Source: Candidatus Bathyarchaeota archaeon
GTDB taxonomy: Archaea > Thermoproteota > Bathyarchaeia > Bathyarchaeales > Bathycorpusculaceae
Assembly: GCA_963768425.1 (NCBI GenBank)
Contig: CAVYHV010000012.1
Span: 1 to 64,000, forward strand
DNA: 64,000 bases
Direction of reading: 5' to 3'
Numbering within the stretch: position 1 is the stretch's first letter; each line of letters opens with the position of its first letter. Positions 25,060 through 60,825 of this stretch are shown here, in pieces. Position numbers and translations under genes: made by a program. Below the pieces are notes generated by a model. The model saw only the letters and a program-made list of their open reading frames with translations, was not told the DNA's origin and searched no databases.

Positions 25060-25493
25060 TTTTTTTTTTCTCCATTTAATTTATTTTTCTATTGACCAAA
25101 AGGTTCACGGGGACAATAGTAGAATAGATTCATAGCAATCAAAGGATCACTGCTGCGCAGGCGGGCACTGTCGACATGTTCGCCACTTGCCCGCCGCTTG
25201 CTCAATGGCTATCACGGAAAATGTATATTTAAACTTTGCAAGAATAGGCAAAGTAAAGATTAAATCGTCATGTTCGTACAAAAAAAGGAATAATAAATGT
25301 TAGACAGGAGCACTGATTTGCAGTAGCAAGAATAAATAAAGATTTGCGGGAGAGATCACCTATCGCTTAGTCCAAATTTGGTCTTTGACACTGCCTTACT
25401 CTTTTTCCTCGTCTACTGTAGTTACAGCAAGACCACTTCTCGAACGCGCGGTTAATAAGTTTATTAAGGGTAAATGTCACGTGAAATAGTTAG

Positions 25494-25949
25494 GTGAACG
25501 ACATGGGTGAAAAGGAAAACCTTCAGTTGATGAAAACACTTGATAACGCTTGGAATGCAGGACCCAGCAGTCCACTTTGGGAAACGTTCAAGAAACGCCA
25601 TAGAGAAGACGTTAAAGTATACTGGCCAGCTCAACCTCTTCCAACATTAGGAAGGCACAACCACGATGTCGAAGCTACAGAATTTTTTAAAACCTTTGAT
25701 AATAAACTGACAAACAGCCCGTACAAGATCGCATTCGGTCAAGGAGATCACACATGCACCGTTGCTGATTGGACTGTGACAATGAAAGGACCGATGAAAG
25801 GGGCAGACGGAAAGATGATTCCGCCGACCGGAAAGACTGCAAAGCTTGAATTTTGTACCGTCGCCACGTGGAAGAATGGCGAGATCGTTGAAGAAAGATT
25901 ATTTTACGATGTTGTAGGTCTAATGCAGCAGCTTGGACTGAGCAAATAG
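25494..25949 (+). CDS. SnoaL-like/ester cyclase family protein
   Basis: GP...DGKMIPPTGK....FC......G.IVEE...YD....QQLGL. Confidence 0.8.
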   Translation: MNDMGEKENLQLMKTLDNAWNAGPSSPLWETFKKRHREDVKVYWPAQPLPTLGRHNHDVEATEFFKTFDNKLTNSPYKIAFGQGDHTCTVADWTVTMKGPMKGADGKMIPPTGKTAKLEFCTVATWKNGEIVEERLFYDVVGLMQQLGLSK

Positions 25950-41138: not shown

Positions 41139-42608
41139 ATGGTGAAAGTCATGAGTGAAGTAAAGAAAGCAATTGAAACTCTCAAATCAAACAACGTCCG
41201 ATGGGTGCACTCAGCATTTGTCGACGTAAGAGGAATACTCCAAGATATGGTTTTACCAGCCAGAGAATACATAAGCGGCTCAGCATTCACCGACGGCATC
41301 GGCTTCGACGGATCTTCTGTCCGCGGCTTCAAATCAATAGAAGAATCTGACATGATTTTCATGCCGGACGCCAAGACCTTATCGATAATGCCATGGGTTA
41401 CTGATGAAGCGCAAAAAAGCGCAATCGTGCTCGGCGACGCATTGGAAGCTTCAGGAGCAAAAGAGCCCTCCGTTACCTGCCCACGCGGCTACGTTGCAAA
41501 AAGGGCAATAAAAGCAGCTAAGGATATGGGGTACACTGGAATTTTCGCTCCCGAACTTGAACACTTCGTCTTCTCTTCAATCGACCCCACCAAACTAACC
41601 TGGGACCTTTGGGCTGCTCCAAAAAGCGGCGAAGGAGACGCATGGGGTGCACCACGCGTTGTGCCAAACTCTCCAGAAGTAACTCCCGGCGGCTTCATCC
41701 TTAGACCCAAAGAAGCCTACTACCGAACACCACCAGAAGACACAACTGTAGAGTACCGAAACGAGGTTTCGCAGATACTTGAAGACAACTTTGGCTTAAC
41801 AATCGAGAAACATCATCATGAAGTAGCAACTGTTGGCCAAGTAGAAATCGACTACAAATATGGCGAACTACTCGAAACAGCTGACCGCGCACTCTTCTTT
41901 AAATTCGTCGCCAAGAACATCGCTAAGAAACGCGGCTTAATCGCCACCTTCATGCCCAAACCAATCTACCTTGACAACGCTAGCGGCATGCATGTCCACT
42001 CAAGCCTATGGAAAGACGGCAAAAACGCAATGTACGACGCCAAAGATGATTATGCAGAACTCAGCCAAACTGGTAGATACTACGTCGGTGGTATACTTGA
42101 ACACGCCAAAGCCCTAACCGCGGTGTGCTGTCCAACAGTTAGCAGCTACAAGCGCCTTGTTCCAGGGTTCGAAGCTCCAATCTACGTTATGTGGTCAAAA
42201 GCTAACCGCTCGGCACTTGCTCGCATACCCATGTACTACAAAGGCCCCTCGCACTCAGCACAGAAACGCGTTGAATACCGAGGCGTGGACCCGTCATGCA
42301 ACCCGTACTTGGCTTTTGCTTGCATAATGATGGCAGGCTTAGATGGAGTAAAGAAGAAGATTGACCCAGGCGACCCAGTTGACGAAGATGTTTACAAACT
42401 GAGTAAAGCAAAACGCAAAGAACTTGGCATAAAAGAGCTGCCAACAACACTTAAAGGCGCACTAGACGAAATGGAAAGCGATACCGTCATCAAAGAAGCC
42501 CTTGGTGAACACGTTTTCGAAGCATTCATTGAACTCAAGACAAACGATTGGAACCAGTACTGCTTGTATGTTTCCCCATGGGAAATAATGAAGTACTTGG
42601 ACTACTAA
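41139..42608 (+). CDS. glnA: Glutamine synthetase type I, copy 1 (with internal insertion)
   Basis: FDGSSV.GF..IEESDM, HHHEVA, TFMPKP...NASGMHVH, SYKRLVPGFEAP, NRSA..RIP. Confidence 0.9.
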   Translation: MVKVMSEVKKAIETLKSNNVRWVHSAFVDVRGILQDMVLPAREYISGSAFTDGIGFDGSSVRGFKSIEESDMIFMPDAKTLSIMPWVTDEAQKSAIVLGDALEASGAKEPSVTCPRGYVAKRAIKAAKDMGYTGIFAPELEHFVFSSIDPTKLTWDLWAAPKSGEGDAWGAPRVVPNSPEVTPGGFILRPKEAYYRTPPEDTTVEYRNEVSQILEDNFGLTIEKHHHEVATVGQVEIDYKYGELLETADRALFFKFVAKNIAKKRGLIATFMPKPIYLDNASGMHVHSSLWKDGKNAMYDAKDDYAELSQTGRYYVGGILEHAKALTAVCCPTVSSYKRLVPGFEAPIYVMWSKANRSALARIPMYYKGPSHSAQKRVEYRGVDPSCNPYLAFACIMMAGLDGVKKKIDPGDPVDEDVYKLSKAKRKELGIKELPTTLKGALDEMESDTVIKEALGEHVFEAFIELKTNDWNQYCLYVSPWEIMKYLDY

Positions 42609-42886
42609 GTTGGCAAACATCGCAACCTGGTAAAACAAAGCAAGAAATTGGGCAAGAAGCTCAATCTTGTCTTATTTTTTTATCTTGCCTTCAAATTTAA
42701 CGTTTTTTTCATTAAATTTCAACCTTTGCTGCCATGTTTGTTAATTCACATGTCTAAAGAACAAACGATTTATGAACAATTGTTTAGTTCCCTTATAAAC
42801 AAGTTAGATGTGTTAAAGATATTTATGCTTAGACGATTATTAGTAAAACGGGTAAATAACACTTAACGCTAAGGTGAAAATAGAAA

Positions 42887-44254
42887 ATGAGAAATTTTAA
42901 AGACGCAGCATGGAAAGAAAGCGTAACTAAGGTAATACAGCAAATCCAAGAACAAGACATCAAATATGTGCGGCTTCAATTCACCGACATCAATGGCATG
43001 CTCAAAAACTTAGCCGTTAGTTCAAAGAACTTGGAAACAATTTTTGAACACGGGCAATCCTTCGACGGCTCCTCTATCACAGGGTACCGGCCAATAGAGG
43101 AATCAGATATGGTTCTCTACCCTGACCCTACAACTTTTGCTGTTGTGCCTTGGAGACCAAAAGAGAAATCCAGCGCCCGATTGATATGCGATATCTACAC
43201 TCCTCAAAACAAACGCTTCGAAGGCGACCCACGCTTCGTTCTGGAGCGTGTCACTGAAAAAGCAGCTAAATCAGGCTACACATTCTTCTGCGCTCCTGAA
43301 CTGGAGTTCTTTATCGTGAAAGAAAGCGAAGAGGAAGGAGGGTTACCCACCCCGATTGACATGGCTGGCTACTTTGATTTTCATCCTGGCGACTTAACTG
43401 ATGACTTGCGTAGAGAAATAGCTGACACTGCAGAAGCGTTCGGCATTGACATTGAGATTTCTCATCATGAAGTTGCTTTAGGCCAGAACGAGATTGACTT
43501 CAAGTTTGACGAGGCGTTAAAGACGGCTGACCGAACAATCACCATGAAGATGTGCGGCAAAGTTGTAGGCGCCCGAAATGGCTTCATCACCACATACATG
43601 CCTAAGCCTTTTTCCGGCATAAACGGGTCAGGAATGCATACTCACCAAAGCCTCTGGAACAAAGATGCAACCCAAAATCTCTTTTACGCCGACGACGAAA
43701 AGAACGGTTTCCTGTCTGACTTGGCGAGAAACTTCATCGGCGGACAATTGGCTCACGGGCGCAAAATGTGCGCAATACTTGATTCGTGGCCAAACAGCTT
43801 CAAACGGTTAGTCCCAGGCTACGAGGCACCAGTGTATCTTGCTTGGGCCCACAAAAACCGCTCACCTCTTATCCGTGTACCCAACTTCGGCGGAAGAAAG
43901 AACGCGGCTCGATGCGAAATTCGCAACCCAGACGGCGCAGGCAACCCATACCTGCAGTTTGCAGTGCTATTAGCAGCGGGTTTAGACGGCATCAAAAACA
44001 GGATTGATCCAGGCGATCCAGTAGAGCTCAACGTTTACCAGATGACTTACGAAGAACGCAAAGAACGCAACATCGTCTCGCTGCCAGAGTCACTGCAGGA
44101 AGCCTTAGACGAATTGGAAACCAGTGATTTGATGAAGGAGACGTTGGGTGAAACCGCGTTTGACAATTTCCTGCGGGAAAAGCGCCGCGAATGGGACCTT
44201 TACCGCACACAGGTGACCGACTGGGAAGTAAACCGCTACATCAAACGACTCTAA
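42887..44254 (+). CDS. glnA: Glutamine synthetase type I, copy 2 (GSI-alpha-like)
   Basis: FDGSSITG, APELEFF, SHHEVA.GQNEIDF, NGSGMH, KRLVPGYEAP. Confidence 0.85.
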   Translation: MRNFKDAAWKESVTKVIQQIQEQDIKYVRLQFTDINGMLKNLAVSSKNLETIFEHGQSFDGSSITGYRPIEESDMVLYPDPTTFAVVPWRPKEKSSARLICDIYTPQNKRFEGDPRFVLERVTEKAAKSGYTFFCAPELEFFIVKESEEEGGLPTPIDMAGYFDFHPGDLTDDLRREIADTAEAFGIDIEISHHEVALGQNEIDFKFDEALKTADRTITMKMCGKVVGARNGFITTYMPKPFSGINGSGMHTHQSLWNKDATQNLFYADDEKNGFLSDLARNFIGGQLAHGRKMCAILDSWPNSFKRLVPGYEAPVYLAWAHKNRSPLIRVPNFGGRKNAARCEIRNPDGAGNPYLQFAVLLAAGLDGIKNRIDPGDPVELNVYQMTYEERKERNIVSLPESLQEALDELETSDLMKETLGETAFDNFLREKRREWDLYRTQVTDWEVNRYIKRL

Positions 44255-44382: not shown

Positions 44383-44703
44383 ATGGACGAGATGGAAAAC
44401 TTCTTTCCAGCTTTAGACGAGAAAGAACTCAAAGATGGCGAAATGAAGCTCGTTTCAGTCGAAGGCACCGCAATCCTGCTGATCAAGCAGTCCGGTCAAA
44501 TTTTCGCAATTGACAACCGATGCCCACACCAAGGCTGCGGCTTTTCAGGCGGAACAATAGATGGATTAGTCATTGTTTGTCCTTGTCACGATTGGCGTTT
44601 TGATCTTGTATCAGGCGCTTACGAAGAGGAGCCGGAGATGACGCTAACAAAGTTCGAGTGGAAAATTAAGGACGGAAAAATCTGGGTAAAGCTTGAAGAT
44701 TGA
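44383..44703 (+). CDS. Rieske-type [2Fe-2S] ferredoxin
   Basis: CPHQ...CPCHDWRFD. Confidence 0.9.
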   Translation: MDEMENFFPALDEKELKDGEMKLVSVEGTAILLIKQSGQIFAIDNRCPHQGCGFSGGTIDGLVIVCPCHDWRFDLVSGAYEEEPEMTLTKFEWKIKDGKIWVKLED

Positions 44704-44812
44704 AAACCTGTCGAGTTTAAAACGTTAGTGTTATTCCAAGAAGCACGAAACAGCTTCACTCTTATATCGGTTTTTCTAATAATCATTACTCAAGAAATTG
44801 AGGCATAACAAA

Positions 44813-45163
44813 TTGGTAACCTTCACTCTGATAATTTATGAAGCCCCATACGCAAAAGAACGTGCTCTTTCTGCGCTTCGATTCGCATGGACTTGCGACG
44901 TAGAAGGACACAAAGTAAGAATCTGGCTCTTCGAAAACGGCGTCTACATAGCCAAAAAAGGGCAAAAACCCGCCCAGGGGTTAACTAACTATGGGCAAAT
45001 GTTAGAAGACCTGATGAAAGGAGGAACGGAAGTCAAAGCCTGCGTCGTTTGTTGCGAAGCAAGAGGCCTAACCCAAGCTGACCTGCTCGACGGCGTCAAA
45101 ATCGCCACCGTACACGAGCTCGTCCAATGGACCGTCGACAGTGACAAAATTATCGAGTTTTAG
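44813..45163 (+). CDS. DsrE/TusD family sulfur-relay protein
   Basis: APY..E.A.SALRFA, L.ENGVY, ACVVCCEARG. Confidence 0.85.
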   Translation: MVTFTLIIYEAPYAKERALSALRFAWTCDVEGHKVRIWLFENGVYIAKKGQKPAQGLTNYGQMLEDLMKGGTEVKACVVCCEARGLTQADLLDGVKIATVHELVQWTVDSDKIIEF

Positions 45164-45173
45164 GGCGACCTTT

Positions 45174-45398
45174 TTGGTAACCGAAAAACTGGATGTCAAA
45201 GGAAAAATGTGCCCCATGCCAGTAGCATTTACGAAGCGGAAGCTTGAAAACATGGCTTCTAGTCAATTGCTCGAGGTTGTTGGAGAAGGTGCATTGGAAT
45301 TTGATAACATTCAACGATGGGTTAAGAATAACGGACACGAGATTGTTGAGGCTTCTAAATCAGGAGAGGAATTCATGATTCTAATTCGAAAACGATGA
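45174..45398 (+). CDS. tusA: TusA/SirA family sulfur carrier
   Basis: LDVKGKMCPMP (CPxP motif), DNIQRW..NNGH. Confidence 0.9.
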   Translation: MVTEKLDVKGKMCPMPVAFTKRKLENMASSQLLEVVGEGALEFDNIQRWVKNNGHEIVEASKSGEEFMILIRKR

Positions 45399-45417
45399 TT
45401 TGAAGGAGGAAGAACCT

Positions 45418-46439
45418 TTGGACTATAGGTTGACAAAAGTTGTTCCGGTTCACGGTTGCAGCTGCAAGCTTCCTCAGTTCCAACTTGGTAGATTGCTCGA
45501 TAACGCGGGTTTATCTGGCAGTTTCGACGAGTCTGTACTGGCAGGTCCATGGGAAAACTCCAGCGTCGTAAAAATAGCAGACGACATCGCAGTTTTGAAT
45601 ACTTTGGATTTTTTCACGCCGATGGTTGATGAACCCGAGATTCAGGGTAGAATCGCAGGAAGCAACGTGACTAGCGACATTTACGCTTTAGGAGTGACCA
45701 ACATTGTTAGTGTCTTGTCTATTCTGGCGTTTCCTGAAAACATGCCTGATGAGCTAGCCGTGGGAATGCTGAAAGGGTTTGGTGACTTTTGCCGCGAGAT
45801 GGGTGCCCCCGTGCTTGGCGGTCACACGATTAGGAACCCTTGGCCCCTCATCGGCGGGGCGGCAACAGGAGTGGGCGACCCAAATCAGATTGTTTATACC
45901 TAGAGGCGCGAAGGCTGGCGACCAACTGTTTTTGACAAAGCCTCTTGGAGTTGCTCCTGCAATGGCTGCATACAGGCTTAGAAAAGAAGAAGACGGAAAA
46001 GAATTGCTTAAAGACATTCAGGAGGCGCCTAATTGGCGACGCGGTCACTGAAGCCATCGAAGGAATGATTAGCTCCAACAAACCGGTTGCTGAAGCGATG
46101 CAGAAGGTTCCGGTTCATGCGGCAACCGACATCACAGGTTTCGGTCTTACAGGTCACGCTGGAAACATGGCTTTGCTAGGTAACGTTGATATCGTTATTG
46201 ACCAGCTTGCAGTGATTCGTGGGACGCCAGTTTTGGCGGAACTTTTTGGGTACCCATTGCTGACTGGTGAATCAAAAGAAACTGCAGGCGGCATGCTAAT
46301 TTCAGTTGCGAAAGAAGACGTAGATAACTTGCTTGGCGAGTTGGATAAGCGGAAAGTTAGACATTTCAAAGTTGGCTACGTTACTGAGGGTAAAGGAAGT
46401 GTTGAGGTTCTCAAAAACGTCAATGTTATTGAAGCCTAG
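45418..46439 (+). CDS. selD: Selenophosphate synthetase, Cys-type (indels near 45900 and 46020)
   Basis: HGCSCK, DFFTPMVD, N..SDIYALG, GGHTI.NPWPLIGG, LTKPLG, ATDITGFGL.GH, ETAGG. SD GGAGG precedes TTG at 45418. Confidence 0.9.
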
Positions 46440-46468: not shown

Positions 46469-46825
46469 ATGCTTCAAGTAGTATCGGTGGCTGAAGTGTC
46501 CGCACTACGTTATGAGATTAAGCTTTGGATGGTTAACGAAAAAAACGAATCCGTTTTCGGCGACGGCATAGCTGAACTTCTGGAAGAAATAGACAAATGT
46601 CATTCAATGCTAAAAGCTGCTGAAGATTTGAACATGTCTTACAGGTACGCATTACATCGGATTACTTTGGCAGAGAGCAGGCTTGGAAAATTGCTAGTAA
46701 TTCGGATGCGTGGAGGGGCAAAAGGTGGAGGATCTTCAGAGGTTACCGATTTCGGTAAGGATTTGGCTAGACGATACCGGAGTGCCCAATCGGAGCTTAA
46801 CAGGGAACTGAAAGAAATGCCTTGA
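46469..46825 (+). CDS. ModE N-terminal winged-helix regulator
   Basis: FGDG.AELL..I....S...AA..L.MSY; RGGAKGGGS.VT. Confidence 0.85.
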   Translation: MLQVVSVAEVSALRYEIKLWMVNEKNESVFGDGIAELLEEIDKCHSMLKAAEDLNMSYRYALHRITLAESRLGKLLVIRMRGGAKGGGSSEVTDFGKDLARRYRSAQSELNRELKEMP

Positions 46826-46966: not shown

Positions 46967-48000
46967 ATGAATACCAAATATCTCGCAGTAGCATTGGTAG
47001 TCGTAATAATAGTTGCTTCAGCACTAGGTTATTTAGCATACAACGGAACATTCTCGTCAAACTCCAAAATTTCCCCTACACCTTCACCCGCACCGACAGC
47101 AACAGCGTCGCCAACACTTGTTCCAACAGCTACAGTAACAGCATCACCTACACCAACTAAAATACCTACCCCGACCGCAGCTCCAACAGCCTCTCCAAGT
47201 CCTGCTCCAACTGCAACCCCGACACCTGTTACTCTAACAGTGTTTGTTGCAGCAAGCTTAGTCAACGTCGTTGCCAACATGACCGCAGCATTCGACAAGC
47301 AATACAACTGCAACATAGTAGTCAACTCTGGCTCATCAAGCACACTTGAAGCGCAAATTGCTTCAGGCGCACCATGCGACGTCTTCATGTCCGCAGACAT
47401 CAAATGGACCAACACATTAAACAGCTACATCAGCCTGGCACATACGGCAACTTCAACACCAACTTCACAACAAACAAACTCTGCGTCATCATAGCACAGG
47501 GCAACCCGAAAAACATTACATCACTAGCAGATTTAGCTTCTACCGCTACAGGTGCTAATAAGATACATATCGTAATAGCGCAGACGTCAGTTCCTGTAGG
47601 CTCATACACAAACCAAACCCTGACAAAAATTAACTAACACATGGGGCAACTCAAGCTCTCCAAGCTACGTCACAAACGGTTCTTACGTTAACTATTACAC
47701 GAATTTCCAAAACAACGTCATTAATACATTATCAACTGATGAACAAGTAGTTGGCGCCGTTAACCTCAACGTAGGAGTCGCTGACGCTGGCATCGTGTAC
47801 TACTCTGACGAAGCTTACGCCAACATGATAGGAGAAACAGTACAATTCCTTCCAATACCTAACTCAGTAAACACTATTGGCACTTACGGCATTTGCATAC
47901 CTAGCGAAACAACTCAATCAACTGTAGCACAAGACTTCTATAATTACTGGCTTTCAGCCAAGGACAAGCGCTGCTGACAGAATTCGGATTCGGGTCATAA
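46967..48000 (+). CDS. modA: Molybdate ABC substrate-binding protein with Pro/Thr stalk (several frameshifts)
   Basis: VFVAASL, GSSSTLEAQI.SGAPCDVFMSAD, VPVGSY, DAGIVY.SD. Confidence 0.85.
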
Positions 48001-48057
48001 AAGTGCATATTAAGCACTCCTATCATCTTTTTTTAACTTATCGAACGGTGCAACATA

Positions 48058-48890
48058 TTGAAGCATAGCTTCGCTAATTCGATATCCAGATAAAATTATA
48101 ATTTTAATCGTTGCTCTAATAGTAATAACATACTTTCTTTTTATAACTGTACCCATTTTAGCAGTTTTCTTGAAAATCGAACCAAGCCAAGTCAGCGCTC
48201 AAATACGTAACGCTGGAATCATAGAAGCAATTAAACTCAGCTTAATTACATCGGGCATAGCGACTTTAATTGCTTTTGTCTTAGCGGTACCATCTGCTTA
48301 TTTCATGGTAACAAGGAATTTTCCTGGAAAAACAATCCTTGATACTCATAATGGATTTACCCATAGTGTTGCCGCCTGCTGTAGCGGGTGTGGCATTGCT
48401 ATACACTTTTGCGCCGAAAGGACTGCTGGGCCCAATATTCAATAGAATAGGATATCATTATACCTGGAAGCACAATAGCAGTTATTATTGCTGAAACTTT
48501 TGTTGCATCCCCATTTCTTTTCAGATCTGCCAAAGTTGGATTTGAAAACATGGACAGAGACATCATTAACAGTGCGAAAATGTTAACCGGTTCTCGCCTC
48601 AGGGTATTTTTCACAGTCACTTTCCCTTTATCAATACGGGCTATAATTTCTGGAACCATGATGACTTGGGCAAGAGCCATGGGTGAGTTCGGCGCAACCC
48701 TAATGTTTGCAGGAAACATTGCAGGGATAACTCAGACAATGCCCCTAGCAATCTACATGTTTCTGTATTACGATCCTTTAGCAGGAATCATGTTATCCAT
48801 TATTTTAATCATAATTTCATTCTCAATTCTTATTATCAGTTAAGCTTCTTGAGCAGAAAAGGTTTGGAGCCAAAAAATGATAAAAATTGA
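48058..48890 (+). CDS. modB: Molybdate ABC permease (frameshifted; ends approximate)
   Basis: FPGK..LD, WARAMGEFGATLMFAGN..G.TQTMPLAIY. Confidence 0.8.
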
Positions 48891-49990
48891 TTCAATTACA
48901 AAATCATTTAGAGAAAAAAAAGTTTTGGAAGACCTCAGTCTCGAAGTCAAAGACGAGGAAATCTTGTCACTTCTTGGGCCAAACGGTTGTGGAAAAACAA
49001 CGCTGCTTAACATACTTTCAGGCATAACAAGGCAAGATGAAGGCAACATTTACATTAACGATGTCTTAGTAAGCGGAAAAGCTGGCACAAGAAATGTTCA
49101 CATTAAGCCATCTGATCGCAAAGTTGGCTATGTCTTCCAAACGGTATCCCTTTTTCCTCATATGCGTGTTCAAGACAACGTGGCATACGGGTTAAAGGCG
49201 CTTCACTTACCTAAACAAGAAGTTAAAAAAAGAACAGAGAACTTGCTTGAATTTCGTTGGTCTTCACGAATACGCAAAGTTTTATCCAAATCAACTTAGC
49301 GGCGGGCAAAAGCAGCGGATTGCGTTGGCGAGGTCGTTAGCTACTGAACCTCAAGTGCTGCTTTTAGATGAGCCTGTTTCCGCGGTAGATCCGCAGTTAA
49401 GGGAGTCTTTCAGACTGGAACTCAAAAACTACCTGCAGGCGCTTAAAATTACTGTAGTGTATGTTACGCATAATTTGTCCGAAGCATTCGTCATGTCGGA
49501 CAGGATAGCCGTGATGGGCAACGGACACATTGAGCAAATCGGCAACAGAACGGAAATTTTTGATAAGCCCAGCTCATCATATGTTGCCAAGTTTCTGGGA
49601 ATAAATACTTTGAATGGTAAAGCGGTTAAAAATCAGGATGGCCTAGTCAAGATTGAGGCAAACGGGGTGGTGTTGCTGGCTCGTGCTTCACCGGATTTGA
49701 TTGGAAAAAAAGTGATTGCAACCCTTAAACCTGACAATATCTTTGTTTCAAAATCGCCTCAATCAAATTTTGGCGGTGAAGCAGGCAATTCTGTTGAAGG
49801 CGTCATAACTGAGATGGTTCAAATGCGATCAAACGCTATGGTTACAGTTGACGCTGGGTTTCTGGTAAAAACAAGGATTCCTTTAAGCTCAATTAAAAAC
49901 GAAAACCTTAGCATAGGCGATAAAGTCTATCTGCATTTCAGCGCCGACTCATTAAATGTCTTTGCAGACAACGACGCAAAAACATTTTGA
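48877..49990 (+). CDS. modC: Molybdate ABC ATPase with TOBE domain (frameshift near 49255)
   Basis: GPNGCGKTT, LSGGQKQR, LLLDEP, VTH; C-terminal TOBE-like strands. Confidence 0.85.
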
Positions 49991-50264: not shown

Positions 50265-50791
50265 TTAATCGTTGTTGCAGATAATGGCTTTTTTAACGAC
50301 CAAATCGGCAAGGTCTCCACTTTGCGTCGAAATCCTGAACATCGGAACTCCAAACGCTGCGGCTTTCTCCGTTTCTGGCTTCGACTCTAAGATTAAACCT
50401 GAAATTGCCATAACCGAATGATCCATGTAGCTTTTCACTTCGTTAGAGGTTTTCGCTGCAATTATCTTCGGAATGCTTTGCTCTCGCTCGAAGCCTTCTA
50501 AGAGTACATAATCCAGCTTTTCCATGTACGGCGAAATCTCTTTTGCCTAAGCCGTCTTTTGATGAAGATGACGGTTTCGTCTCTTGGAACTGCAACGATG
50601 ATTTCGGCTCCGGCATTGCTGTATCTGTCGGTTTCTGTGGCGGGCGTATCCAAAGTTGGAATGCGCATCATCTCTTTGATTGTCCCAACCCGAAATCCAC
50701 GGCTCTTCAACTCCACAATCAGATGCTCGATAACGGTGGTTTTTCCGGAGTGTTTCCCGCCGATAACCGCAACCATTTTAGGCAAATTCAA
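50265..50791 (-). CDS. mobB: MobB-like protein, copy 1 (frameshift near 50535)
   Basis: GGKHSGKTT, G.RVGTIK, D....ETDRY..AGA, DYVLLEGF. Confidence 0.8.
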
Positions 50792-50877
50792 CCCTTATCC
50801 AATTTGTTTAAAGTGGATGAGCCATATATTGTTTGATGGTTGAGCGGAATTTTGGTCTCTCGCTCAGCTTGATCTGT

Positions 50878-52279
50878 TTATGCACTGTTTTGAATGGCAT
50901 AGAGCGCCGCGTCAAGGATTAAGCTGTTGGTGTTGCAGCCTGTGCCTGGGAATGCATTGTCCGTTGCTGTTTGCGCCGTCGCAGTACCCGTTTGAGGTTG
51001 GGTCGGGAAGGATGTTTTGGAGGTAAATAATCAGATTTTGAGCGAAGGTCGAATTGTACAGTGCTAGGAAGCTGTAGGCGACTTTAGTGTAGATTATGGG
51101 GTTGATGTTGAGGTAGGAGTTTGGGGTGGTGCTGGTTATTTTCCATGTTTGGCCGTTGGGGGCGACAACCCATTCGTAGAGGTATTGGCTTGTGAGAGAG
51201 TTTCCTTCGCTGAAAGCAACGTACTTGCCTGTTGCCATGTAGTATGCTTCATGGGCAAGGTAAACCTGGTGGGTTAGGCTGTTTAGTTGGGCGTTGCTGT
51301 TGTTGAGTTCGAACATTGCGCCAAGCAAGGGTTCGGTGGTGATGGCAGCATTTGGTAGTGTTACACCGTAAGTTGTGACATTTTGCGATTTGAAGATGTT
51401 ATTCATGATTTGGTAAGGGATGTTGTTGAGTTGGGGAAAAAAGCTTGCGAAGCCGCTGTCGATGTAATAGGCGTAGACGCTGTTGGAATCAGCGTCTTTT
51501 TCAACGTTAGGCAACAAAGCGGCATAGTCGCTTTGATTGTAAACGATGTAGTTAATCCTCTGCGTTAAACTGCTGTTGTAGCTTCTTAGATTGTTGAGAG
51601 CCACAAACAGTCTTCCTGTGTCCGCCTCGTCGACCGTGCCTGTTGCCTGGTCCGACAGTGAATGGTAATCTTGTCCGTTTGTACCGTCATAATACCAGTA
51701 GGGATAACTTGTTTTAGGATTTAAGGGTCGATTTTCAAGAAAATTCATAACTTTCTCAATTCTTGCGCTTGAACCCCACGAGCCATCGGTGCTTACTAAC
51801 CCGAGTTTCGCCGCGTCAATTACAGCTTGGATGTAACCGCCTAAGTCCCAAGCGGTAAAAGCTTTGAAATTGTTGCCTGACGCATATGGAAGCCCAGTTT
51901 GGGAGTCAACGCCTATGCCGGGTTGAAAGTAAGCCCACGCATTTGATGCTATGCCAAGCCAGACGGTAGCTGTTGACAGGTTGACCTGGAGCGACGAATC
52001 CTGAACCGCTGTTTTGATGAGAAATCGGGACATAGTCTATTCCCATCCACCGCTTTAGCTCTGAGTTTGAACTATAGAATGCGGCAAAAAAAGAAATCAG
52101 CAAAATAGCCGCGATGGCAATTGCAACGGCAGACCTTTGTTTTCCTGCCAAAACGCGAATGACCATGAGTTGACGAACTTTTGCCTCCAACCTTCAGGGA
52201 AGCGGGTAAACTGGCGACATCAGCGCATTTGAAGGAAGCGATTTCTTTTAGGGAGTAGCTTTGGGTCCATTAAATCCAT
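50878..52279 (-). CDS. DUF3131-like membrane-anchored putative glycoside hydrolase (frameshifted)
   Basis: AWAYF....D..TGL, TAWDLGGYI.A...A..LG, DTGRL, EP.L, AFSEG, TK.A; N-terminal TM. Confidence 0.6.
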
Positions 52280-52482: not shown

Positions 52483-53050
52483 ATGGTTTTAGTTGTTGCC
52501 GCCGTCGGAGTAAGCGGTTCAGGAAAAACGGTTACGTTAGAGTACTTGATTTCTCGCTTGTCCAAGGAAGGCTACCAGATAGGTTCTATTAAGCATGTTC
52601 ACCATAAAGGCTTCACGATGGACAGGGAAGGCACGAACACTTGGCGTTATGCTAAGGCAGGCTCAAAAGTCATCGTTGCAATCTCCCCTGAAGAAATAGA
52701 CATCATCAAGAAAACCCAGATGGCGCTCAACGATTTAGACCGAATAATCGCGCTGCTTGAAAATGAGAAGCTGGACTTGGTTTTCATCGAAGGCTTCCAC
52801 AGCCTAATCGCGAAAAGAGCAGGACGTACCCAAAATCGTCACTGCAAAGGATGAAGAAGGGCTAAAGCAGACCCTGGAGGGAACCGTTAATCCAATCGTC
52901 GCGATCGCAGGCGTCGTTGCCACAAAATCCACAAGCAACGAATACCGTGGGATACCGATAATCAAAGTTCCGGAAGACGGACAAAAACTCGTCGATCTAA
53001 TAAGAAATCAATTACCCAAAAATAGACCAAGCAAAGAAGCTGCAGATTGA
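52483..53050 (+). CDS. mobB: MobB, copy 2 (frameshift near 52820)
   Basis: GVSGSGKT, IKHVHH..F.MD.EG.NTWR..KAG, FIEGF. Confidence 0.85.
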
Positions 53051-54150
53051 GGAAAAACTGCTTGACTAAAAGAGCTGCGCTTATATTGGCAGGGGGAAAA
53101 GCCCGTCGGTTCCAAGCCAAAGGCGGAGCAAGATGGGAAGATAAGGCGCTCGCAACTATTTCGGGAAAGCCCTTGCTGATTTACGCCCTCGAAAACGTTC
53201 ATGGCGTAGTTGACGAGGTTGCGGTAAGCGTGAAAGATGAAGAGCGCGCTGTAAGATACGAAAAAATCCTCAGAAAGAATAGTTTGAACAAGGTTCGGAT
53301 AGTGGTTGATGAAAAAAGCGACATTAGTGGTCCGACTGTGGCAATTATGTCGGGGCTAAGACGGGTTCAAGCGGATTATTGTCTTACATTGCCCTGTGAC
53401 ATGCCTTTTCTGGAGCCCAAAGTTGCGGACTACCTGTTCAAGCAAGCAGAAGAGTATGAAGTGGTTACCCCCATGTGGCCAAATGGCAGACTTGAAACCC
53501 TGCTGACAGTGCTGGAACGGAAAACGGGGTTGGAAATCGCTGAAACTCTGTGCAGACTAAAACGTCCTCGTTCAGATGACATTCAACGCGGCGCAAGCAA
53601 AACCCTCCTCGTATCTGCCTCGAATGAGATAAAAGAGCTTGACCCCGAACTCAAAAGCTTCATCAACATCAACTCCAAAGAAGATCTAAATAAGCTGCAA
53701 ACACGCCGAGCCCACGGTCCCATCAAAGAAAACGTAAAAATAAACCTTGGAGCTTCTCCAGTTTCCTATTTCAAACCTCTCAAAGAAGGTGCCGAATTGA
53801 TCCATCAAGGAAATCTTCCTGAGGCTCAAAATATTTTTTCTTCATGCTCCAAAAGCTTCGCGGCTAAGAAAGCTTTTTTTTGGGCTGGTATAAGCGGGGA
53901 AAACCAAGGCGAAACAATGTTGAAGCTCAGCGGACAGCAACAGGAACAAGAATTAGCTTTGGACTTAGATTTTCAGGGGAAAGAGGCTTTCGTTAAGGCA
54001 GCGAACGATTACAGATTAGAGTCAGAGAGGTTCGATGAGTACGGTTGCCGTTTGTTGGCGGAACGCGCGTTAGCTGATAAAGTATGGTGTGAGTCTTGGG
54101 CTATGGGGAAAACTGCGCACGTGCACAGGTACCCTTCGAAAGTCGCTTAA
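53047..54150 (+). CDS. mobA: Molybdenum cofactor guanylyltransferase with C-terminal extension
   Basis: LILAGGKARRF, DKAL, LPCDMPFL, FININS.ED, plus ~140 extra aa. Confidence 0.8.
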   Translation: MRKNCLTKRAALILAGGKARRFQAKGGARWEDKALATISGKPLLIYALENVHGVVDEVAVSVKDEERAVRYEKILRKNSLNKVRIVVDEKSDISGPTVAIMSGLRRVQADYCLTLPCDMPFLEPKVADYLFKQAEEYEVVTPMWPNGRLETLLTVLERKTGLEIAETLCRLKRPRSDDIQRGASKTLLVSASNEIKELDPELKSFININSKEDLNKLQTRRAHGPIKENVKINLGASPVSYFKPLKEGAELIHQGNLPEAQNIFSSCSKSFAAKKAFFWAGISGENQGETMLKLSGQQQEQELALDLDFQGKEAFVKAANDYRLESERFDEYGCRLLAERALADKVWCESWAMGKTAHVHRYPSKVA

Positions 54151-55427
54151 ACACCAAAAACAGCCAGTTCTTGCTTGCCGAATAATGTAACTTCCACTTT
54201 GCTGTTTTTCGCAATTGTCGAGTGGGGTGGAACTATGGCATAGCCATTTGATTTAACGATGGTTGACAGCGCGCTTGAGCCGCCCTCAACCGGCTCTGCC
54301 AAAAACTTGCCTTCGCTTTGGGTCAGCTTAAGGAGTTGGAACCTGAATTGCGGCCCAGAATCCAATGTTTCAGTTAGTTCAGCTGTTAAGCGCGGCTGCA
54401 TTCCCGCTTCTTTTAAGCCAGAGTATAGGCTGATTAGTGGTGCTGCGAAAAGGTAGAAGCCAGCAATGCATGATCCGATGTGCCCAGGCAACATAATTAC
54501 GGGTTTACCGTTAACTGCGCCAAAGCCTGAAACCGCGCCTGGACGAAGAAGTATCCCTTGAACAATAACACCGGGGTTCCCAAGAGAATTAACAGCGTCT
54601 GGAACAAAATCTTTCACTCCGACCGACGAACCGCCAATGGTAACGACAATATCCGCCTGCGCCAAAGCTTCACTAATTTTAGCTGTAACCTTGTCCAAAG
54701 AGTCAGGCATGATTCCCAACATTTGAGCCGATGCGCCAAGTTCAGAAGCTAAACCTGCAACGACAAGCGCGTAGTTGTTGGCAATTTTTTCGGGGTTCTT
54801 TTGGCGTTGACGAATTAACTCGTCTCCACCAGATAAGATAGCTACCGTTGGCTTTTTGAAAACTTCAGCCTCCTTCAACCCAATGGAAGCGAGCAAACCA
54901 ACATCTTGCGGTCTAAGAACCTGCCCTTTTACATTAATTAAATCGCCCTTCTTGACGTCGTCGCCCAATGGAATTACACCCTCTCCTAGCTTGATTGGTC
55001 GGAGAACTTGAATTTGGTCGCCGCTCAGGCGGGTTTCCTCCACTTTTACAGTTGAATCCGCACCTTTAGGGATCGGAGCGCCGCAGGCAACGTAAACAGC
55101 TTGTCCGGCTCCTACTGTTAAGGCGGGTGGATAGTCGACAGGGAATAATTTGCCAATAATTTTGAAAGTGGCGGGTGCGTTGACAGAGGCGTTTTTTGTT
55201 TCTTGCGAGTTGATTGCGTAGCCATCTATGAATGTCTTGTCGTAGGCGGGGATGTTGATTTCAGAAAAGATATCTTTTGCCAAAACTCTGCCTAAGGCTT
55301 CGGTTAAGAGGATGCTCTCGCTGTGTGTTTTGTTTTTGCGTGCGGCTTCAAGGAGTTGCTTTTGAGCGTCTATGGGGTTGCCGCGTTTAGGTAGCCTCTT
55401 GATGTCGGGTCTTTTCACTTTAGGCAC
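54147..55427 (-). CDS. moeA: Molybdopterin molybdenumtransferase
   Basis: ALGRVLA, DGYA, GAPIPKGAD, GDEL, GGSSVG..D, LPG. Confidence 0.9.
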   Translation of the reverse strand: MPKVKRPDIKRLPKRGNPIDAQKQLLEAARKNKTHSESILLTEALGRVLAKDIFSEINIPAYDKTFIDGYAINSQETKNASVNAPATFKIIGKLFPVDYPPALTVGAGQAVYVACGAPIPKGADSTVKVEETRLSGDQIQVLRPIKLGEGVIPLGDDVKKGDLINVKGQVLRPQDVGLLASIGLKEAEVFKKPTVAILSGGDELIRQRQKNPEKIANNYALVVAGLASELGASAQMLGIMPDSLDKVTAKISEALAQADIVVTIGGSSVGVKDFVPDAVNSLGNPGVIVQGILLRPGAVSGFGAVNGKPVIMLPGHIGSCIAGFYLFAAPLISLYSGLKEAGMQPRLTAELTETLDSGPQFRFQLLKLTQSEGKFLAEPVEGGSSALSTIVKSNGYAIVPPHSTIAKNSKVEVTLFGKQELAVFGV

Positions 55428-56213
55428 CTACAAAATTATTCTTTCTGCGCCCGTGTAAACGTTCATTCGGGTTCCTCTGACGAAGCCGGCGAGCGCGATA
55501 TTGGCTTTTTCAGCCGACGAGATGCCCGAATTCAGGACAGCCGCCACTGAAGCTACGATGGGCAAGCCGACTTTTGCTGCTTTGTAAATCATATCGCCAG
55601 GTACCCGTCCGGTGATAATCATGAAGCATTGGCTAAAGTCCACCCTGTTTAGGGATGCCTCTCCGATGACTTTGTCAACTGTGTTATGCCGTCCTACGTC
55701 CTCGGAGAAAGCAACCATTGTCCCGTCTGCCTTGAAAATGCCGGAGTCATGGAGCCCTCCCGTTTCTTTGAAGCCTTTAGCTTTACTGTTCATCTGTTTT
55801 ATGCAATCAAGAATTATCTGCGCTTTTACCTTCAGTGACGATTTCACAATAGGTATTTTTTCGTCATGTTGATATGGCGATGTGCTGGCTTTGATTAGCG
55901 GGATTATGCGGGTAGTGCGCCGCGAGTTTTTCATTCGCTCAGCCAAATCAACGTTTGCCTTTACATTTATCTGGCAGCGGTGTTCTTTTTCGTCACTGCT
56001 TAAGGATTCGATTTCATCAACTGAGTGCAGAACATCTTCCGCAAGCAAGTACCCGACTGCAAGCTCTTTGAACTGCGAAGGAGAGCACCAGATTACAAAC
56101 ATGTAAGCATCATTAAGTGAGATTTGAAGGGGCACTTCTTCGGCAACCCAGTCCTTTGTCTTCTCTGATTTTCCAGTTGACAAATCTAGTCTTACCATTT
56201 CAACCTGACGCAT
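55428..56213 (-). CDS. fdhD: FdhD-family cofactor-insertion protein (lacks the CGxCG loop)
   Basis: AEEVPL, ELAVGYL..E, TGGLH, EDVGRHNTVDK, TGRV, GFVRG..MNVY. Confidence 0.9.
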   Translation of the reverse strand: MRQVEMVRLDLSTGKSEKTKDWVAEEVPLQISLNDAYMFVIWCSPSQFKELAVGYLLAEDVLHSVDEIESLSSDEKEHRCQINVKANVDLAERMKNSRRTTRIIPLIKASTSPYQHDEKIPIVKSSLKVKAQIILDCIKQMNSKAKGFKETGGLHDSGIFKADGTMVAFSEDVGRHNTVDKVIGEASLNRVDFSQCFMIITGRVPGDMIYKAAKVGLPIVASVAAVLNSGISSAEKANIALAGFVRGTRMNVYTGAERIIL

Positions 56214-56361: not shown

Positions 56362-57183
56362 CTATAGGTATTTTTCGTATGTTTTAAGTTGCGGATTGTT
56401 GGCTTTGTTGACGAATAGTTTGCCTGTGCCGTGTTCTGCTAGGTCGCCCAAGAATACATAGAATGGCCCCGCAACGCTTTGGGTGTCATCGATTTTGACT
56501 TTAGGTTTGACGCTGTCAACGGTGAATCCAGGCATTACTTCTTGGATTGTGCCTGTTATGACTATTTTGCCGCCAGTCATTAATGCGCCTGCGCGGTTGT
56601 CACATTCCTTGTCAACGAGGATTGCGCCATCGCTCATGTGGTAGCCCAGGAACCTACCTGCGCCGCCTTTGATTTTTAGTACGCCTCCATGCAGGTAGCA
56701 TCCGACGTCGCTGCCGACTTTGCCGTCAACAACAATCAATCCGCCTTTCATGCCTGTGGCTGTGCCGCGGTATGGAGAAGCTAAATAATCACCTGCGTCT
56801 CCATGCACTTCAATTAAGCCGCCTTTCATGTCGTCACCTGACCATCCGCCTATGTTGCCGTTTACTGTGATTTTGCCACCAGCCATTTTTTCTCCTGTGT
56901 GCATACCGCAGTCGCCATTGACAACTATTTCTCCTGTTTTCATCGCTTGGCCAATTCGTTTGACTTTGCCGGCGTCTCCGTTTATTGTGATGTAGGGTGT
57001 TTCAAGGTGGTCTTCTTGTATTTCGAAGAGGTCGCCGAGTTTTAAGTTGCGGTTTCCTTCGGTTACGGGTAAGTTTGATATTTCAGTGGTGTCTTTGCCT
57101 TTGAAGAAATCGGGGGTTATGCATGCTGCTTGGACAGGCACCTCGAATTTTCTTTTCGGTGTTAAGATGATCATTTCAGACAC
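56362..57183 (-). CDS. fwdC: Formylmethanofuran dehydrogenase subunit C
   Basis: GxGxxM.GG.I.V.G repeats, YRG...GM.GG, GDLAE.G.GKL. Confidence 0.95.
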   Translation of the reverse strand: MSEMIILTPKRKFEVPVQAACITPDFFKGKDTTEISNLPVTEGNRNLKLGDLFEIQEDHLETPYITINGDAGKVKRIGQAMKTGEIVVNGDCGMHTGEKMAGGKITVNGNIGGWSGDDMKGGLIEVHGDAGDYLASPYRGTATGMKGGLIVVDGKVGSDVGCYLHGGVLKIKGGAGRFLGYHMSDGAILVDKECDNRAGALMTGGKIVITGTIQEVMPGFTVDSVKPKVKIDDTQSVAGPFYVFLGDLAEHGTGKLFVNKANNPQLKTYEKYL

Positions 57184-58873
57184 TTGCCTTAACAGTTAAT
57201 TTTTCTTGAACCTTGAGGTAATGCTCGAACACTGGATAATTGTCGTATTCGATTGTCCAGTACTGTCTGAATTTCTGTCTCATTTCATCGTCGATTATAC
57301 AGGGGTCTTTGGTTTGGACATCAAGCCACATGGTTCTGCCAGGTGTTGTGTTATCAACTACTTCACCATCTTTAACAACAATCTTGCCGTCTTTGACAGT
57401 GTATGCTGCGTGTTTGAAGGCTTTACGTGCGATCTTGAATTGTTGGGCAATGTCGAGTTTTTCAGGGTTAATATTGAAAATTGCAACATCTGCATCTGCT
57501 CCAACGCCAAGTTGACCTTTGGTTTTAAGACCCAAAGCTTTTGCTTGCCCAGCACGGGTCATAATGGCTATTTCGTAGAGGGACATTTCCCGGTCGATTG
57601 CGGGAAGCAGACTCTTTTTCTGGGCTCTCTTATTGCAGTGTTTAAGTGTTATTTCGCGTGCTTTCTTGCTGTATAGCCAAGCGAGAACACGTGGGTAAGC
57701 GAAGAAGGGTCCACCGTTTGGATGATCGGTTGACAAGAACATTTTCCAAGGGTCCTTAATGAGCAACGCTAATTCCAACCCAATAGACCATTGTAGCGCG
57801 TTTACTGGGCTGTTTTTTTTGTAGTGGAAAGGTATTATTCCGCCGCTGGTTTCGGTTTCGATGTCACTGTTAACCCATTTGTTGTGGCCGCCTAACTCGT
57901 AGAGTGAAAATTCGAATGGTCCGTCAGCAGTCATGGTTGTGGTGTCGGTGAATATGACTTGTCCCATATCGAAGGTCATGTGGTTGTGAGCATTGATGTA
58001 GCTTGAAATTTCTTCTGAGGCGGTATTAAAGTGTGCCCAGCTGTCACCAGCGAAGCTTGCGAACTGCAAATGAGTAATGTGGCCAACGGGTTTGCCGTTG
58101 TAAGGAACGCTTTCTAGTGCCTTCATAGTATCAAGTGTCGTAGTGTAGTTGCCAGGTAATCCAAGGTTGTTAGTGTGAAGATGTATCGAGTGAGGCAGAT
58201 TGAGAAGTGCATTAACTCTAGCTAAGCCGCAAATTATTTCGCGGGGGGTAATGCAGAAGTTAGCCACTTGGTCGTCTATGCTGTGGACGTTGTGTCCGAA
58301 ACCCCAAGATTCCAAGCCGCCTGGGTTAACGATTTTTATCGCATAGCCTTTGGTTATATCCAGCATCCAAGCGACGTGTTTGGCGCATTCTTCGATGTTG
58401 CCTTTGGCTAGGTTTTCTAATACGAACCACCAATCGCCTAGAAGCGGATAAGTGGCCTTGTCAAGTAAGGGTATGTCGTTTAATTCTTCATGGGTATGTT
58501 TAGCTTCCAAAGGCGCCATAGACGGATTCATAACAGTTGTGTAACCCATACGGGAATATCGATAACCAGTAGTGAAAGTCGAGGGAATGGAGTAACCAGT
58601 GCCGCTGCGGGTCATTGCTGTTTTGCGTTCCACATCTTTAACGTGATCATCCGGACGGATTATTCTGCCAGTGTTAACTTCTCCACCCGCAATGTGGGTA
58701 TGGATGTCAACACCGCCAGGCATAACAGTTAAACCTGAAGCGTCAATCACTTTGGCTTTGGTACTGACTTTTTGGACAATTTTGCCGTTTTTGATTGCTA
58801 TGTCCATTTTTTCTCCGTTAATCCCGTTTATTGGGTCAAAGACAAAGCCATTTTTTATGAGTAATTCAGTCAT
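57176..58873 (-). CDS. fwdA: Formylmethanofuran dehydrogenase subunit A
   Basis: GGVDIHTHIAG, K.VNPGG, H.HTNNLG.PGN, TMTADGP, TDHPNGGPF. Confidence 0.95.
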   Translation of the reverse strand: MTELLIKNGFVFDPINGINGEKMDIAIKNGKIVQKVSTKAKVIDASGLTVMPGGVDIHTHIAGGEVNTGRIIRPDDHVKDVERKTAMTRSGTGYSIPSTFTTGYRYSRMGYTTVMNPSMAPLEAKHTHEELNDIPLLDKATYPLLGDWWFVLENLAKGNIEECAKHVAWMLDITKGYAIKIVNPGGLESWGFGHNVHSIDDQVANFCITPREIICGLARVNALLNLPHSIHLHTNNLGLPGNYTTTLDTMKALESVPYNGKPVGHITHLQFASFAGDSWAHFNTASEEISSYINAHNHMTFDMGQVIFTDTTTMTADGPFEFSLYELGGHNKWVNSDIETETSGGIIPFHYKKNSPVNALQWSIGLELALLIKDPWKMFLSTDHPNGGPFFAYPRVLAWLYSKKAREITLKHCNKRAQKKSLLPAIDREMSLYEIAIMTRAGQAKALGLKTKGQLGVGADADVAIFNINPEKLDIAQQFKIARKAFKHAAYTVKDGKIVVKDGEVVDNTTPGRTMWLDVQTKDPCIIDDEMRQKFRQYWTIEYDNYPVFEHYLKVQEKLTVKASV

Positions 58874-60421: not shown

Positions 60422-60423
60422 AA

Positions 60424-60825
60424 TTACCTTCCATACTCCTCTTTCAAAAGTTCATCAAGCGTCAAGACCACTTGGTTTGGAGCAGGTTCAACTTCGACCG
60501 CAAAACCCTTGTACAGAGGCATACCCATTCCGAAAGTTTCATCTCCACAGACGGCATTTGCCCATAAACCGCAAGGGATGAAAACTAACCCAGGATTGGA
60601 GCCATAGGGGTTTTTCGCTGCTTTGACGATGACTGAACCATACTTTGAAGTGACTTTGACGTTTGTTCGGCTTTTTATGCCGAGTTTTTTCAAGTCAGCT
60701 TCATCTATAATGCAGATGGATGAGCTGTCAAAGTATTCTTTTGAGCCTTTCCCCATTTCCTTTCCAACGCCTTGATCGATTGTTCTACCAGTGATTAGAA
60801 TTACCCGCAGCTTTTGCTCTACCAT
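60424..60825 (-). CDS. fwdD: Formylmethanofuran dehydrogenase subunit D
   Basis: LITGRTIDQG, G.VFIP.G.WAN, T...GMP.YKG. Confidence 0.95.
   Translation of the reverse strand: MVEQKLRVILITGRTIDQGVGKEMGKGSKEYFDSSSICIIDEADLKKLGIKSRTNVKVTSKYGSVIVKAAKNPYGSNPGLVFIPCGLWANAVCGDETFGMGMPLYKGFAVEVEPAPNQVVLTLDELLKEEYGR

Follow-up and report, generated by a model that had tools for sequence, protein, structure and literature searches.

A dsrE-tusA-selD gene module in a selenocysteine-free Bathyarchaeota genome: a probable selenium delivery and activation system

The window analysed here is a 64,000-nucleotide stretch of DNA (contig C12:1-64000) from a Candidatus Bathyarchaeota archaeon whose assembly, G000, comprises 2.96 Mb in 33 contigs at 91% completeness. 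Its subject is three consecutive genes on the (+) strand, dsrE, tusA and selD, which encode two small cysteine-bearing carriers and a Cys-type SelD. Gene order was read from an open reading frame (ORF) listing, three-frame translation and Pfam and NCBIfam scans. The gaps within the trio are at most 19 nt: dsrE overlaps the tusA ORF, or is separated from it by 10 nt if the alternative TTG start at 45174 is used, and tusA ends 19 nt before the TTG at 45418 with which selD starts, GGAGG standing ahead of it. The first-pass annotation had described this tight coupling, with modE and modABC next in line and mobB, mobA, moeA, fdhD and fwd genes further downstream, and had read the motifs ACVVCCEARG in DsrE, CPMP in TusA and HGCSCK and NPWxxIGG in SelD; the scans find every named gene in its place, and all of the motifs can be read, the last as NPWPLIGG. 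Below, G- and L-numbers denote the genomes and loci of relatives (G000 being the window's own genome), and a congener is a member of the same genus.

Judged by its sequence, the window enzyme appears to be a bona fide SelD. It has the N- and C-terminal AIRS domains together with HGCSCK and NPWPLIGG, and its intact orthologue at L047:2557-3576 scores 331 bits on the archaeal SelD equivalog NF010705 (cut-off 291) and 228 bits on TIGR00476 (cut-off 125); the N-terminal fragment of the window SelD alone reaches 141.6 bits on the latter model. On the crenarchaeal SelD-like model NF038049 the same orthologue scores 39.5 bits against a cut-off of 250. With X placed at its breaks, the window protein can be aligned over its whole length with 22 relatives and retains every motif, HGCSCK being present in it and in 21 other Cys-type sequences of the alignment. 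TGA stands exactly at the first Cys of HGCSCK in G039, a member of the same order, and in the congener G087, which verifies the first-pass reading of this Cys as occupying the selenocysteine (Sec) site. In the SelD tree the window sequence groups with the Sec-encoding (Sec+) species G071 and G067 (support 92/77).

Both carriers are intact members of their families. DsrE matches PF02635 (E 8.6e-22; 77.9 bits against a gathering threshold of 22.7), and its C-x-x-C (CVVC, motif C.VC) is invariant in 34 distinct orthologues, while TusA matches PF01206 (E 6.6e-18; 64.8 bits against 28.6), with the Cys and second Pro of its CPMP motif (CP.P) invariant in 39. The best NCBIfam match of DsrE is TusD, at 39.9 bits and below the equivalog cut-off of 89.25; TusA is best matched by two models of YedF, NF008242 (E 1.2e-11) and TIGR03527, again below cut-off. 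More distant DsrE homologues comprise four matches of 35–44% identity in bacterial metagenome-assembled genomes, and nothing selenium-related was recognised among the listed, unannotated ORFs at three of these four loci (L151, L153 and L154).

Failure to find a gene in an assembly of 91% completeness says little by itself; a positive control, synteny and the codon at a known Sec site were therefore tested as well in asking whether G000 encodes Sec. The best tRNA-Sec candidate in G000 reaches 40.8 bits against a cut-off of 47 and is a tRNA-Ser, and aragorn finds none. A search of the G000 genome found no PSTK, no SelB over cut-off and no SepSecS, the last by both TIGR03531 and tblastn with congener SepSecS, and tblastn with a congener PSTK-SelB returned only matches at the level of EF1A and aIF2-gamma. 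A PF05889 match was considered as a SepSecS and rejected, being a split SepCysS-like gene beside tRNA-Cys; TIGR03531 finds nothing in G000. The control recovered tRNA-Sec (64–72 bits) directly beside SepSecS in all five of five Sec+ congeners. In G071 and G067 an island of about 10 kb, containing SepSecS, tRNA-Sec and a 731–732 aa PSTK-SelB fusion (280.5 on TIGR00475, cut-off 242), has an HdrA/MvhD pair on one side and two further genes on the other (L107, G071:C6:43000-62900; L108, G067:C49:4500-24400); at the matching locus of the window's genome (G000:C6:296502-301401) the two flanks meet directly, at C6:299875-300218. The HdrA gene reads DCSI-TGA-IEG in both Sec+ species and DCSI-TGT-IEG, with Cys, in G000. 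Since the control works, the island is cleanly missing at its syntenic site and the HdrA codon is one for Cys, G000 is genuinely Sec-free.

The other users of selenophosphate for which models were searched were likewise not detected. SelU/YbbB (TIGR03167) was found neither in G000 (E up to 0.001) nor in any of the 120 genomes, G000 included, that make up our genus sample (E up to 1e-5). YqeC (TIGR03172) is absent from G000 and from the same 120; YqeB (TIGR03309) was not found in G000, a genus-wide search not having been made. TIGR04348, which we take to be the model for a SenB-type selenosugar synthase, gives at best 37.9 bits in G000 against a cut-off of 300, SenA not being among the searches, and a YedE-type transporter was not found in G000. 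The first-pass annotation had seen no Sec, SelU or YqeB/YqeC gene in the window and had proposed a genome-wide check for tRNA-Sec, PSTK, SepSecS, SelB, SelU and YqeB/YqeC; that check found none of them in G000, so that the observation holds for the whole genome. The searches support the conclusion that SelD works outside any recognisable Sec, 2-selenouridine (SeU) or YqeB/YqeC pathway in G000 and, going by the genus-wide searches for SepSecS, SelU and YqeC, in most of its genus.

Of the 120 genomes in the genus sample, 72 have a SelD that exceeds the archaeal equivalog cut-off and 10 have a SepSecS over its own. The 73 high-quality genomes (at least 90% complete, at most 5% contaminated) were cross-tabulated by hand: 49 encode a full-length SelD, six with SepSecS and 43 without it; six, including G000, have a partial or broken SelD, and 18 have none. 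Of the 55 genomes with SelD, 54 also have a DsrE orthologue (at E up to 1e-20), as against none of the 18 SelD-less ones; DsrE and TusA are tied to SelD both through adjacency and through phyletic pattern. Among 401 genomes of the class SelD was detected (E up to 1e-40) in 38, namely 28 of 40 sampled congeners versus 10 of 361 others, and six of those ten non-genus matches carry an internal TGA and are therefore of the Sec type.

Selection on SelD was compared through the ratio of nonsynonymous to synonymous divergence (dN/dS). Among 91 pairs in which both members lack Sec, 54 are saturated at synonymous sites and the median of the other 37 is 0.055, and among 15 pairs of Sec+ species none is saturated and the median is 0.05. 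Within a well-supported clade (99/99) of six species, all without SepSecS, values range from 0.045 to 0.116 where dS is measurable. SelD appears to be under equal selection, strongly purifying, whether or not Sec is present.

As seen by tblastn with the window proteins, the order DsrE-TusA-SelD recurs in the examined congeners wherever the contig allows. In about half of the congener loci a double-cubane reductase of about 430 aa (NF040772, 498.6 bits against 350) is inserted between tusA and selD, and at eight loci (including L062), of those with upstream ORFs listed, dsrE is preceded by a LysR-like ORF, divergently oriented and some 310 aa long; the one copy scanned, from G071, passes the selenium metabolism-associated LysR model NF040786 (261.6 against 250). 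Loci of the NF040772 [8Fe-9S] reductase include L047:1180-2475, L093-L098, L111, L113, L114 and L117. Sec+ congeners use the same module, their SelD being 87–89% identical over the first 167 residues. More distant relatives place it among Sec genes: G348 has PSTK-SelB, LysR and then DsrE-TusA-SelD-SepSecS; G333 and G345 have DsrE-TusA-reductase-SelD(TGA) with LysR, and SepSecS in G333; G170 has TusA-SelD(TGA), and G230 reductase-SelD(TGA), beside PSTK-SelB and SepSecS; and in G039 SelD(TGA) is followed by PSTK-SelB and SepSecS (read from their N-termini), FdhD (by tblastn) and a MobA-like ORF. The module thus belongs to the selenium/Sec gene set of the class. In G087 (L091, C1:947000-966900) the HG-TGA-SCK SelD is followed directly by PSTK-SelB, with no adjacent DsrE or TusA, and two tRNA-Sec matches exceed the cut-off.

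Because the trio in sister lineages sits within Sec gene clusters and behind a selenium-type LysR, we read it as a selenium delivery and activation module, a Sec accessory by ancestry that was kept after Sec had been lost; we put the probability of this reading at roughly 60%. Its place within those Sec clusters is also why DsrE and TusA are set upstream of SelD, as donors, rather than downstream of it. DsrE, through its CxxC, and TusA, through its CPxP, would carry reduced selenium as a Cys-bound perselenide and pass it to the Cys-type SelD, whose Cys and Lys loop would form selenophosphate from ATP; where the double-cubane reductase is present, it may generate the selenide. The ancestral role in Bathyarchaeia would have been that of an accessory to the Sec pathway, and G000 and most of the genus have lost the Sec machinery but retain the module under strong purifying selection. 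From the loss of Sec and the retention of the module under selection it would follow that selenophosphate feeds a consumer beyond those known. That this amounts to a trait new to science, selenophosphate-dependent and present in dozens of species without the known consumers (Sec, 2-selenouridine, the YqeB/YqeC cofactor and SenB-type selenosugar), is a tentative proposal that we hold at somewhat below even odds. A candidate form for such a trait is a selenium ligand or modification in molybdenum or tungsten (Mo/W) enzymes, or another cofactor.

The neighbouring genes (Table 1) form a conserved trace-element and C1 neighbourhood of Mo/W transport, cofactor and Fwd genes, for which a role as target of the module is putative. 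Many congeners, and genus g21 too, likewise have the Rieske gene 5' of dsrE, and the modE-like gene adjoins selD in many congeners. Intact orthologues in G071 match TIGR01256 (modA), TIGR02141 (modB) and WtpC/ModC models, and the G071 orthologue of the second mobB-like gene scores 89.6 bits on TIGR00176. FwdB is of the Cys type, as the first-pass annotation had stated; it has no Pfam match at E up to 0.01 and was identified by NCBIfam. It matches the 421-position TIGR03129 profile in two stretches, which suggests an insertion. PhoU-like and Nfn/Sud-like genes stand between selD and modE in several genomes; in genera g1 and g21 (L047:3708-7118, L094, L113, L114) the recurring inserted genes encode a PhoU-domain regulator that carries a fused AbrB/MazE-like domain and the two members of an Nfn/Sud-like pair, one a Fer4_20 protein with pyridine-nucleotide oxidoreductase and the other an FAD/NAD subunit; they may help to reduce selenium species. 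Elsewhere in the window, the intervals ~18300-25500 and ~6750-8100 hold few ORFs of at least 90 aa and could be frameshift-rich or non-coding.

Table 1. Features of the window around the dsrE-tusA-selD module. Frame switches were counted against the intact genes of congener G071.
Feature	Position	Strand	Description
Two glnA	41139..44254	+	Tandem glutamine synthetase paralogues, 489 and 455 aa, just 5' of the Rieske gene
Rieske [2Fe-2S] protein	44383..44703	+	PF00355, E 1.4e-20; conserved upstream neighbour of the trio
Candidate archaeal TATA box, CTTATATC	44761..44768	+	Read from sequence alone; about 45 nt before the dsrE start
dsrE	44813..45163	+	DsrE/TusD-like Cys carrier, 116 aa, intact; PF02635
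tusA	45141..45398	+	TusA-like carrier, CPMP motif, intact; PF01206; alternative TTG start 45174
selD	45418..46439	+	Cys-type (HGCSCK); three frames, 2 switches (two 1-bp insertions)
modE-like	46469..46825	+	HTH regulator, N-terminal domain only, intact; PF00126; TIGR00637 52 bits, below cut-off
modA, modB, modC	46967..49990	+	Molybdate/tungstate ABC transporter; 3, 3 and 1 frame switches
Second mobB-like gene	50292..50827	-	1 frame switch; tblastn of the 202-aa G071 orthologue in two frames
DUF3131 protein	50912..52033	-	PF11329; 3' part in other frame (1 switch)
mobB	52483..53032	+	PF03205, TIGR00176; 1 switch near 52816, two frames against the 179-aa G071 orthologue
mobA-like	53047..54150	+	Intact
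moeA	54147..55427	-	Intact
fdhD	55428..56213	-	Intact; 195 bits on TIGR00129, over cut-off
fwdC, fwdA, fwdB, fwdD	56362..60825	-	Intact; TIGR03122, TIGR03121, TIGR03129 (546.7 bits), NF042908
fwdB	58874..60421	-	515 aa; motif NCCSVCHGPS

The selD gene cannot be read in one uninterrupted frame in this assembly: a 1-bp insertion near 45901-45904 creates a TAG, and another lies near 46026-46028. These are two of 12 frame switches that fall between 45.9 and 52.8 kb, over seven unrelated genes (Table 1), whereas the adjoining 7.8 kb that hold mobA to fwdD are free of them; the breaks, being clustered over unrelated genes and absent from mobA-fwdD, therefore follow region and not function. A genome-wide sample started from 400 kb of congener G019, from which we drew 205 ORFs no shorter than 200 aa and kept the 115 with a G000 orthologue of at least 65% identity, the best match of the other 90 being absent or below 65%. 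Genome-wide, 24 of the 115 are split over more than one frame in G000, and two more are partial in one frame. Twelve of the 24 are annotated and ten named, among them the carbamoyl-phosphate synthase large subunit (CarB), family-B DNA polymerase (PolB) and the RLI/ABCE1 ATPase, as well as MetK, archaeal RecJ, ThrC and TrpD; the aIF2-gamma-like gene and the SepCysS-like gene beside tRNA-Cys are also split. A cell could not carry so many broken essential genes, which therefore points to assembly errors. Frameshifts are common throughout the assembly and occur in clusters, for example at C14:321921-328845, C6:181478-182454, C9:259088-259899 and C6:25314-26010. Of the public sequencing runs, 11 are listed as carrying the sequence, at shares of at most 0.14 and with no RNA run among them, and four (X1, X2, X4 and X8) were examined over the indel sites. 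Among the pieces listed, the only sequence that bridges these sites belongs to a relative of about 90% identity in the peat run X8, which has no extra base at 46026 and reads through the first site in frame. We regard it as highly probable that the selD indels are assembly errors; the breaks in modABC and mobB are most likely errors of the same locally poor stretch rather than decay, and any apparent pseudogene in the G000 assembly should be treated with caution.

The breaks could instead mean that selD is a real and recent pseudogene, a Sec remnant decaying together with modABC, a reading that would account for both insertions and the new TAG. It draws support from the position of the Sec+ G071 and G067 as closest SelD relatives, from the absence from G000 of the Sec island, the selenium-type LysR and an orthologue of the SelD-linked double-cubane reductase (a 36% identical paralogue lies elsewhere in the genome), from the loss of SelD in 18 of 73 high-quality congeners, with fragments in a few (G005, G011, G131), and from a local frameshift density several times the genome average. 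Yet frameshifts affect 24 of 115 sampled genes, essential ones included, the broken stretch also spans DUF3131 and two mobB genes, the catalytic motifs are intact and 43 high-quality congeners without Sec have a full-length SelD. Nor is there any excess of amino-acid change: in a three-taxon decomposition the G000 branch has dN 0.044 and dS 0.79 (omega ~0.055), similar to the Sec+ sisters G071 (0.052) and G067 (0.040). We consider decay unlikely. That the module activates sulfur rather than selenium, making thiophosphate or handing over a persulfide in the manner of the crenarchaeal SelD-like/TusA/DsrE clusters, for example for SepCysS or for cofactor sulfuration, is quite unlikely also. TusA and DsrE are classical persulfide carriers, the best matches of this DsrE are TusD models, G000 has a SepCysS-like gene and no YedE-type transporter was found in it, and thiophosphate has been proposed as the product of a SelD-like enzyme that has TusA and COG2210 as neighbours (PMC4210487). 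Against this stand the scores of the enzyme, which clears the curated equivalog cut-off for SelD but not that of the SelD-like model; the same orthologue is the only SelD over cut-off in Sec+ congeners, the module lies between PSTK-SelB and SepSecS in G348, relatives carry the divergent selenium-type LysR, and the SelD of G087, G333 and G345 is itself of the Sec (TGA) type.

The first-pass annotation had gone further and cast the trio as a seleno- or thiophosphate relay from which the Mo/W-bisPGD of Fwd (formylmethanofuran dehydrogenase) receives its terminal chalcogen ligand; another Mo/W enzyme encoded nearby could be the target in the same way. The gene order makes this attractive, since selD is followed within 30–50 nt by the modE-like gene and then by modABC, mobB, mobA, moeA, fdhD and fwd, an arrangement common among congeners and recurring in g21; the SelD, PSTK-SelB and SepSecS genes of G039 adjoin FdhD and MobA, an orphan SelD needs some consumer, and a selenium ligand on molybdenum is known from molybdenum hydroxylases (PMC2276186 and PMC2432076). 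The linkage to mod and fwd, which it had proposed to check, stands only in part, as the module lies elsewhere in G014, G008, G015 and G017, and the PhoU-like and Nfn/Sud-like insertions part selD from modE in several genomes. The attribution to Fwd fails on distribution: 17 of the 18 high-quality congeners that have neither SelD nor DsrE retain an intact FwdB over the family cut-off. Moreover, the markers of the known selenium-cofactor trait, YqeB and YqeC, were not found (both in G000, YqeC in any congener of the sample), a dedicated sulfurtransferase, FdhD, already stands beside fwd, and synteny within the genus mostly reflects shared ancestry. A relay to Fwd is accordingly very unlikely, and a selenium delivery and activation module remains the reading that we prefer.

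Several observations weigh against that preferred reading or against parts of its support. No consumer of selenophosphate was identified among the pathways searched, and the binding and transfer of selenium by DsrE and TusA is something we infer. The contrast between 54 of 55 and 0 of 18 overstates functional coupling, because a single deletion can remove neighbouring genes together and related genomes are not independent. The likeness to YedF appears to be one of function and not of family membership, since DsrE has no match to the C-terminal domain of YedF even at E up to 10 and TusA falls below the YedF cut-offs, covering only profile positions 1–68 of 194 on TIGR03527 (37.1 bits against 110). 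The lack of a selenium-type LysR and SelD-linked reductase in G000 could mark a system in retreat. As for the indels, near-identical contigs of low depth (0–1 differences, from two soil runs) miss 45786-45966 and 46026 among the pieces listed, and frameshifts, at about 1.6 per kb, are locally much denser than in the genome on average.

Comparison with known systems helps to place the module. In bacteria a TusA/SirA-like plus DsrE-like protein, YedF, is tightly linked to SelD, and it was reported absent from archaea in a 2015 survey (PMC5322559). The window pair resembles YedF (TIGR03527, a fusion of SirA/TusA-like and DsrE-like domains, also known as FdhU) in having CPxP and CxxC domains genomically tied to SelD and in that its TusA matches YedF models best. 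It differs in that membership of YedF requires a single TusA+DsrE fusion over cut-off, whereas here there are two separate genes, DsrE then TusA, with a TusD-like DsrE and no YedE found. The Crenarchaeota harbour a SelD-like/TusA cluster proposed to make thiophosphate (Li et al. 2014, PMC4210487); with this SelD-like/TusA/DsrE system (COG2210; NF038049) the module shares an enzyme of the AIR-synthase family whose catalytic Cys is N-terminal, flanking carriers and a Sec-free archaeal host. Unlike it, the window enzyme scores, through its orthologue, 331 bits on NF010705 against 39.5 on NF038049 and has no acylphosphatase fusion, and window-type modules lie inside Sec clusters in relatives. A PSTK-SelB fusion of Bathyarchaeota is reviewed in PMC9499178, and congeners and sister lineages have such a system, with the 731–732 aa fusion, SepSecS and tRNA-Sec, of which the module is the SelD supply arm; G000 differs in lacking all three and in having Cys at the Sec site of HdrA. 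Double-cubane proteins co-occur with SelD according to Haft & Gwadz (bioRxiv 10.1101/2022.07.06.499078), and the 430-aa NF040772 protein between tusA and selD in many relatives adds physical linkage to the published co-occurrence, unlike the window, which does not contain it. In Methanococcus maripaludis, TusA/TusD transcripts rise 4.5–4.6 log2-fold on selenium depletion (PMC11097638).

SelD genes without known partners have been discussed since 2008 (Haft & Self, PMC2276186; Zhang et al., PMC2432076), and PMC4210487 and PMC5322559 describe one in Methanoplanus petrolearius. The module is like these orphans, and like the third selenium trait, in having SelD without Sec or SeU machinery and near molybdenum-cofactor genes. 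It is unlike the third trait in that YqeB and YqeC were not found and that the neighbouring Mo/W enzyme, Fwd, is of the bis-PGD type and not of the xanthine-dehydrogenase family, and it is unlike other orphan SelD cases in spanning dozens of species of one genus that also holds Sec+ and SelD-less species. A literature search, with subscription journals and supplements outside its scope, found no description of an orphan-SelD clade or of a split DsrE/TusA-SelD module for Bathyarchaeia.

The analysis carries a caution, in that an attractive connection with the Fwd cofactor does not survive a simple check of co-occurrence and apparent pseudogenes are best explained as assembly errors. Known orphan SelD cases, a puzzle since 2008, are few and scattered; the finding is of moderate interest through the size and cleanness of its orphan-SelD clade. 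The reading would assign a role in archaeal selenium trafficking to the small TusA and DsrE carriers and to the enigmatic double-cubane reductases. With three states side by side in one genus (Sec with SelD, SelD only, and neither), these archaea offer a natural experiment for finding the consumer of selenophosphate. If our reading is true, the missing consumer could be sought out by phylogenetic profiling of the Sec+, SelD-only and SelD-less species.

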